Below, one piece after another: positions 38,121 to 38,256 of a stretch of DNA of 64,000 bases. Source of the stretch: Escherichia coli (GTDB taxonomy: Bacteria; Pseudomonadota; Gammaproteobacteria; Enterobacterales; Enterobacteriaceae); NCBI RefSeq assembly GCF_013122565.1, contig NZ_CP053258.1. One strand, written 5' to 3'. Both the position numbers and the translations under genes were made by a program. Each line of letters begins with the position of its first letter. The first letter of the stretch is position 1. The notes beneath the pieces were generated by a model that saw nothing but the letters and a program-made list of their open reading frames with translations, had not been told where the DNA came from and did not search any database.

Positions 38121-38207
38121 ATGACTCACATCGTTCGCTTTATCGGTCTACTACTACTAAACGCATCTTCTTTGCGCGGTAGACGAGTGAGCGGCATCCA
38201 GCATTAA
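38121..38207 (+). CDS. leuL: leu operon leader peptide
   Basis: 28-codon [31 protein letters not shown] with four consecutive Leu codons (cta cta cta cta), followed by a terminator hairpin. Confidence 0.9.
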
Positions 38208-38231
38208 GCCAGCACGCAGTCAAACAAAAAA

Positions 38232-38256
38232 CCCGCGCCATTGCGCGGGTTTTTTT
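38232..38256 (+). terminator. leu attenuator (rho-independent terminator)
   Basis: GC stem cccgcgc / gcgcggg with 5-nt loop followed by a T-run, just downstream of leuL and upstream of leuA. Confidence 0.85.

Follow-up and report, generated by a model that had tools for sequence, protein, structure and literature searches.

The leuL leader of the Escherichia coli leuLABCD operon read as a ribosome-mediated transcription attenuator: elements, conservation and predicted switching

The leu attenuator of Salmonella typhimurium reportedly goes back to Gemmill et al. and to Keller and Calvo, both in 1979. For E. coli, a passage in PMC5314783 that cites Wessler & Calvo 1981 describes leuA as being under ribosome-mediated attenuation via leuL, which has four consecutive Leu codons, and the same source, citing Vitreschak et al. 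2004, mentions related leaders in other proteobacteria. The leuL leader also appears in lists of known attenuators and leader peptides (PMC9299463, PMC7815308), and it is the usual example of a leader with rare control codons, the thr leader using a major codon (PMC1183508). According to the summary of Carter et al. 1986 in PMC1183508, the exchange of CUA for CUG in the Salmonella leader lowered its sensitivity. Moreover, the experiments with replaced codons and altered codon numbers in Salmonella, as they are cited in PMC1183508 and PMC9291695 (Carter 1986; Bartkus 1991), point to translation. RNA polymerase pauses within leuL with a half-life of 27.9 s, which NusA raises 1.7-fold, and pausing was not regained in mutants with compensatory changes in the pause hairpin (PMC9291695).

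Here we analyzed a stretch of 64,000 nucleotides of E. coli DNA (NZ_CP053258.1), which we call the window, and in which an element of this kind lies between leuA and the divergent upstream gene leuO (Table 1). The element is almost certainly the leuL leader, the ribosome-mediated transcription attenuator of the E. coli leuLABCD operon. This assignment draws on the sequence elements, the identity to K-12, the family membership, the topology of shared nucleotides, the conservation and the predicted ribosome-dependent switching, all of which come from the present analysis, and on the literature for the regulation by leucine, the pause and the effects of codon choice and codon number. The element has been known since Wessler & Calvo 1981, and it offers nothing new to biology. 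Its value is that of a positive control, as a base-exact reading of an attenuator had been made from raw sequence and the tool-based analysis recovers all known parts.

Table 1. Features of the leu promoter, leader and attenuator in the window (positions count from the first base of the window).
Feature	Position	Strand	Basis
Putative leu promoter -35 hexamer TTGACA	38058-38063	+	Position and consensus
Probable -10 hexamer TAACTC, 17-nt spacer	38081-38086	+	Conserved block cCAGTAnCAnTA 17 nt past the -35 hexamer
Predicted long-range helix, leuL SD/AUG region 38107-38126 with stop-codon region 38200-38219	38107-38219	+	Rfam consensus, minimum-energy fold
leuL Shine-Dalgarno (SD) GGAG, 8 nt 5' of the ATG	38109-38112	+	Read from sequence
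leuL leader ORF, ATG at 38121, 28 sense codons, TAA stop at 38205-38207	38121-38207	+	Translation; NCBIfam NF007397; leuL annotation in E. coli genomes
Predicted protector, GUCUACU 38146-38152 with GGUAGAC 38178-38184, around the pause hairpin CGCA 38162-38165 with UGCG 38173-38176	38146-38184	+	Minimum-energy fold
Four tandem CUA Leu control codons (codons 10-13), also in the 5' strand of the protector	38148-38159	+	Sequence, codon usage
Predicted antiterminator (preemptor) 5' strand GCGCGG, within codons Leu18-Arg19-Gly20	38174-38179	+	Masked-ribosome fold, conservation
RNA polymerase pause site, U-1/G+1, with G-10 at 38179	38188-38189	+	Pause sequence of PMC9291695 mapped onto the window
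Intrinsic terminator (attenuator) hairpin; CCGCGC 38233-38238, the core of its 5' arm, doubles as the predicted antiterminator 3' strand	38226-38255	+	Folding, Rfam
U-tract of 7 T; putative 3' end of the attenuated leader transcript of ~160 nt	38250-38256	+	Read from sequence
leuA, first regulated gene	38300-39871	+	NCBIfam equivalog; annotation of the matching E. coli record

The element is assigned to its family at both the RNA and the peptide level. Leu_leader (RF00512) aligns over its entire length (model positions 1-148 of 148) to 38107-38256 (+) and scores 145.8 bits (gathering score 50, E = 4.5e-32), and it is the sole Rfam match over 37500-38800, where neither a T-box nor a riboswitch family scores. 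The leader peptide matches the leu operon leader peptide equivalog NF007397 over residues 1-28 of 28 (80.9 bits, cut-off 59). Downstream, leuB, leuC and leuD follow leuA up to position 42981, and all four proteins are recovered as NCBIfam equivalogs (LeuA 1047 bits, LeuB 572, LeuC 938, LeuD 344). The preliminary description, which was made from the letters alone, had read the region as a leu attenuator; this reading is borne out by both family matches, by the identity to K-12, by leuA to leuD directly downstream and by the literature.

From 38050 to leuA the window is 100% identical, base for base, to K-12 MG1655. It differs from K-12 by four substitutions at 37979, 37980, 37990 and 38048, all of which lie 5' of the -35 hexamer; the last of them, a C to T change relative to K-12, creates an ATG. 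Of 5426 complete E. coli genomes, 5399 contain a 371-nt region with leuL and leuA annotated, and the leader alone is at least 99% identical in 4875 genomes. Over 37950-38320, the identity is 95-99% in most E. coli genomes, compared to at least 99% over the leader alone, and the polymorphism is therefore concentrated in the AT-rich intergenic part. In the remaining 27 of the 5426 complete genomes the leader match is absent, and these genomes may be laboratory strains with ara-leu deletions. Three leader matches sit on records that are typed as plasmids. The E. coli strain STEC299 from Marmota (NZ_CP022279.1, locus 88-177) has a leader of 29 residues with five CTA codons (94.7% identity), in which the cores of terminator and antiterminator are unchanged; the fifth CTA is a natural change of the control-codon number, probably via slippage of the CTA repeat.

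Several further elements were recorded in the window. A 392-residue ORF, setA (43030-44208, -), lies between leuD and sgrS, and the SgrS sRNA is present at full length (44236-44462, -, 232.9 bits); in an O145 strain that is otherwise identical no setA is annotated at that place. A TPP riboswitch (RF00059, 47762-47861, +, 65.8 bits) presumably stands ahead of thiamine transporter genes. PssrA, described as a plasmid-encoded sRNA of Shigella, has an Rfam match in a chromosomal context here (16518-16607, -, 105.5 bits), and the two other Rfam matches are STnc40 (10802-10871, -, 81.7 bits) and naRNA4 (10304-10381, -, 78.4 bits).

For the comparison with other bacteria, metagenomes were scanned with two anchors, the Leu run and the LeuA motif DTTLRDGEQ, leaving the regulatory RNA unconstrained and excluding E. 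coli itself via synonymous sites, after the pattern had been checked on the window. This resulted in 120 loci, 29 of them with enteric-type leaders of 25-28 residues, and RF00512 matches all three enteric-type homologs that were tested (93-98 bits). The window and the 29 independent enteric-type homologs were aligned using MAFFT, and this 30-sequence alignment underlies the conservation values given below. All 29 divergent homologs keep the ORF, the SD and the Leu run in the same position before leuA. Three GC cores, GCGCGG, CCGCGC and GCGCGGG, are invariant in 30/30 sequences. For GCGCGG, this invariance extends to the synonymous third positions of the codons CGC and GGT, and CCGCGC and GCGCGGG are noncoding and lie beside a spacer (38208-38225) that varies freely. 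Such invariant cores are exactly what would result from a constraint on three-way pairing. Because they are invariant, no covariation can be scored for them as evidence for or against pairing, and conservation by itself cannot tell which of the two partners matters.

In many metagenomic contigs, leuA is preceded at a similar distance by a different Leu-run leader of ~17 residues, e.g., MTNFSLALLLLSPNGRSW. When 12 of these short-leader loci were tested against Rfam, neither RF00512 nor another family reached the gathering score in any of them (0/12). A simple terminator finder returned no terminator in 41 of the 108 leader regions examined, and all 41 are non-enteric. The leaders of ~17 residues are probably the non-enteric proteobacterial leu attenuators known from comparative genomics, and they appear to be without a curated RNA model.

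Upstream of the leader, the heptamer GTTGACA is invariant in 30/30 aligned upstream regions, i.e., in the window and the 29 metagenomic homologs, and by its position and its match to the consensus the TTGACA within it can be assumed to serve as the -35 element of the leu promoter. In the same 30 regions a GTAnCA block is conserved 17 nt past the -35 hexamer. In the window this block contains TAACTC, which is a poor match to TATAAT, as only the T and the A at positions 1-2 agree. A consensus promoter scan of the window did not call the leu promoter, which we attribute to the weak -10 hexamer and thus regard as a limit of the rule of the scan. Further downstream, GCAT is conserved at 38092-38095, near the putative start. 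Transcription of leu probably begins at about 38094, in agreement with the K-12 annotation.

The leader carries all elements expected from a leader-peptide attenuator, since an SD, an ATG, four CUA codons and a TAA are present together in leuL. The 28-codon leader with four CTA codons, which the preliminary description had read from the sequence, thus holds with its exact coordinates, 38121-38207 for the ORF and 38148-38159 for the Leu run. In the homologs the equivalents of the SD are found in the same place and read tGGAG, tGGGG or cGAGG. The Leu run CTACTACTACTA occurs in a single copy in the 64-kb window, compared to zero copies expected from 100 shuffles. CTA is the rarest Leu codon and makes up 3.6% of the Leu codons in the 39 long ORFs of the window; at this Leu codon usage, four consecutive CTA codons have a probability of ~1.7e-6. 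Those third positions of the Leu run that the search pattern left unconstrained are nearly all A in the homologs. Outside of the Leu run the LeuL peptide is moderately conserved, e.g., in NA..RGR, and nine nucleotides separate AAYGC from GCGCGG in the leader pattern CTNCTNCTNCTNAAYGC-N9-GCGCGG.

Between the leader ORF and leuA lies an intrinsic terminator, in which AAAAAACCCGCGC (38226-38238) pairs with GCGCGGGTTTTTT (38243-38255) across the loop CATT. The G+C-rich hairpin, whose 5' arm begins nineteen bases past the leuL stop codon, has an energy of -20.2 kcal/mol in full and of -14.5 kcal/mol in its 7-bp GC core. The U-tract is invariant across the 30-sequence alignment and ends 43 nt 5' of leuA. 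Hence, the GC-rich hairpin (38226-38255) and the T-run (38250-38256) that had been noticed ahead of leuA are found in this place, with the leuA ATG at 38300. In a simple terminator scan of the window the attenuator hairpin is absent from the output, likely because the stem, extended by A-U pairs, enters the T-run, leaving <5 T after it. We read this as a limit of the rule of the scan and as no evidence against the hairpin.

In the minimum-energy fold the Leu codons form one strand of the protector, which has an energy of -10.8 kcal/mol. It is ~99% (98.8-99.2%) paired across the 30 sequences and contains one clean compensatory pair, 38147:38183, which is U-A in 19 and C-G in 11 sequences and unpaired in none. 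A second register of the protector, 38155-38158 with 38178-38181, is possible because the CUA repeat is periodic. The enclosed hairpin CGCA:UGCG (-4.2 kcal/mol) is the pause hairpin that the PMC9291695 supplement lists for leuL. There, the 50-nt pause window of leuL ends with ...GACGAGTG, corresponding to position 38189 of the window, whereby the assignment of the exact nucleotide is our own mapping.

A further helix is predicted between the region around the SD and the start codon of leuL and the region around its stop codon. In per-sequence folding it appears in 30/30 homologs, with a median pairing probability of 0.74 compared to 0.35 with the partner shuffled, and it beats this shuffled control by >0.2 in 28/30. 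In the MAFFT alignment its column-wise support is weak, with 57% of cells paired. This helix would close the ribosome-free leader and would hide the ribosome-binding site of leuL.

The antiterminator, whose exact pairing we infer, consists of GCGCGG (38174-38179) with CCGCGC (38233-38238) and is found with the ribosome masked on the Leu codons and the 3' arm of the terminator omitted. For GCGCGG the chance expectation in the leader stretch is 0.07 occurrences. Protector (38173-38184), antiterminator (38174-38179 and 38233-38238) and terminator (38226-38238) are mutually exclusive, as the antiterminator shares nucleotides with both other structures and the protector in turn overlaps the control codons. 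For the switch test the transcript was ended at the loop of the terminator, because the terminator 3' arm is still unmade at the time of decision, and the footprint of the ribosome was masked. Under these conditions and without a ribosome, the core of the terminator 5' arm is paired with a probability of 0.35. A ribosome at the stop codon lowers this value to 0.21, and one on any of the Leu codons 10-13 raises it to 0.85 via the GCGCGG:CCGCGC helix, so that in silico a ribosome on the control codons favors the antiterminator. Of the 30 leaders (29 metagenomic homologs plus the window), 25 are predicted to switch likewise; the median pairing over all 30 is 0.09 without a ribosome, 0.39 when it sits at the stop codon and 0.85 when it sits on the last Leu codon. 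The preliminary description had named a lack of mutually exclusive structures as the outcome that would count against attenuation. The opposite was found, since the alternatives share nucleotides and respond to a modeled ribosome on the Leu codons.

The fold of 38121-38260 that the preliminary description had proposed as a check contains only the terminator state. It does not reveal the antiterminator, which requires that the 3' arm is omitted and the ribosome is masked. The unconstrained fold of the leader consists of a long hairpin plus the terminator (-57.5 kcal/mol, z = -4.5 compared to dinucleotide shuffles), and the terminator persists in every masked fold of the full-length leader. With a stalled ribosome on the full-length leader, the terminator state is still favored, with -31.7 versus -19.9 kcal/mol. 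As the terminator is more stable at equilibrium even with the stall, antitermination must, on these calculations, be kinetic; this matches the classical model, and kinetics cannot be displayed by folding programs. The lesson is that a test for an antiterminator needs the nascent transcript with the ribosome footprint masked, and not the equilibrium fold of the whole leader. The conserved antiterminator comprises just 6 bp, which close a loop of 53 nt, and RNAalifold on the stalled-state sub-alignment retains only these 6 bp. Inner helices at 38182-38221 stabilize the antiterminator of E. coli and are not conserved; with only 53.8% of cells paired, they were dropped as a part of the mechanism.

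Taken together with the literature, the following course of events is proposed. Transcription would start near 38094, and the polymerase would pause near 38188 behind the small hairpin, which would give a ribosome time to load on leuL. With plentiful charged tRNA-Leu reading CUA, the ribosome would pass codons 10-13 and reach the stop codon. GCGCGG (38174-38179) would then be covered by the ribosome or paired again with the Leu-codon region in the protector, CCGCGC (38233-38238) would stay free, and the terminator would form, so that transcription would end at ~38256 before leuA. If leucine is scarce, the ribosome would stall on the four rare CUA codons, whereby the protector would be melted and GCGCGG exposed. 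The latter would pair with CCGCGC as soon as this is transcribed, the terminator would be pre-empted, and the polymerase would read through into leuABCD. If no ribosome is loaded, the protector and then the terminator would be expected to form.

It could be argued that the hairpin is an ordinary intrinsic terminator that is not regulated, or the remnant of a bidirectional one, and that the ORF with its CTA codons arose by chance and senses nothing. The hairpin is indeed symmetric, being preceded by an A-run and followed by a T-run, and is therefore terminator-like on either strand, and the terminator forms at equilibrium in every masked full-length fold. However, leuO, the sole gene on the upstream side, is divergent and hence supplies no transcript that would have to be ended, and if termination between the promoter and leuA were constitutive, an essential biosynthetic operon would be silent. 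Chance does not account for the ORF either, since 29 divergent homologs keep it together with the SD and the Leu run in the same placement before leuA and since CTACTACTACTA is not expected by chance. Moreover, the terminator 3' arm has an upstream copy, GCGCGG, in which even the synonymous sites do not vary, so that this explanation is extremely improbable. Equally hard to credit is a control by leucine via a factor other than the ribosome, be it a T-box-like contact with uncharged tRNA, a leucine riboswitch or an RNA-binding protein. This conflicts with a leader in which SD, start codon, in-frame Leu run and stop codon are all conserved. The Leu codons themselves form the strand of the protector, so that a ribosome positioned there frees the antiterminator. 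With Leu_leader as the sole Rfam match, no T-box or riboswitch family is found, and the codon replacement and codon number experiments in Salmonella, as far as PMC1183508 and PMC9291695 report them, speak for translation.

An additional function, which would exist on top of the attenuation, concerns the products of the leader. The abundant attenuated leader transcript (~38094-38256) or the LeuL peptide of 28 residues might act in trans, by analogy to rnTrpL and peTrpL of Sinorhizobium, or the helix between SD and stop codon might limit the translation of the leader to a single pioneering ribosome; we regard both as very unlikely. The leader RNA of ~160 nt is stable and highly structured (z = -4.5), LeuL is moderately conserved beyond the Leu run, and the passages on rnTrpL and peTrpL in PMC6614838 and PMC7298713 provide a precedent for a trans function derived from a trp attenuator. 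In contrast, the conserved positions of the peptide coincide with constraints on the RNA, as GCGCGG lies in the L/V-R-G codons, so that no function of the peptide is needed, and no report on a trans role of leuL was found in the literature on leuL and sRNA. Neither a trans role nor a separate layer formed by the helix is needed to explain the conservation.

Ribosome-mediated attenuation by leuL can be compared with the other known systems. Like the leader in the window, the non-enteric leaders of ~17 residues are Leu-run ORFs that precede leuA at a similar distance, and a hairpin and a T-run follow in many of them, whereas their peptides (e.g., MTNFSLALLLLSPNGRSW) and terminator sequences are different. 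The enterobacterial trp, his, phe, thr, ilvGMEDA and ilvBN attenuators use the same mechanism, with a leader of cognate codons, 1:2, 2:3 and 3:4 hairpins, a terminator and a coupling pause, but they differ from leu in their sequence family, in the control codons and in the amino acid that is sensed. The leu attenuator of S. typhimurium is closer and follows the same logic of protector, preemptor and terminator, with a leader of 28 residues, four Leu control codons and a polymerase that pauses close to where the ORF ends (PMC9291695, PMC1183508); its run consists of three CUA codons and one other Leu codon (PMC1183508), in contrast to the four CUA codons found here. The leuL of E. coli K-12 (b0075; RF00512), finally, is the same element, as it has the same peptide with its four CUA codons, the same terminator and the same gene neighborhood, and there are zero differences within the element.
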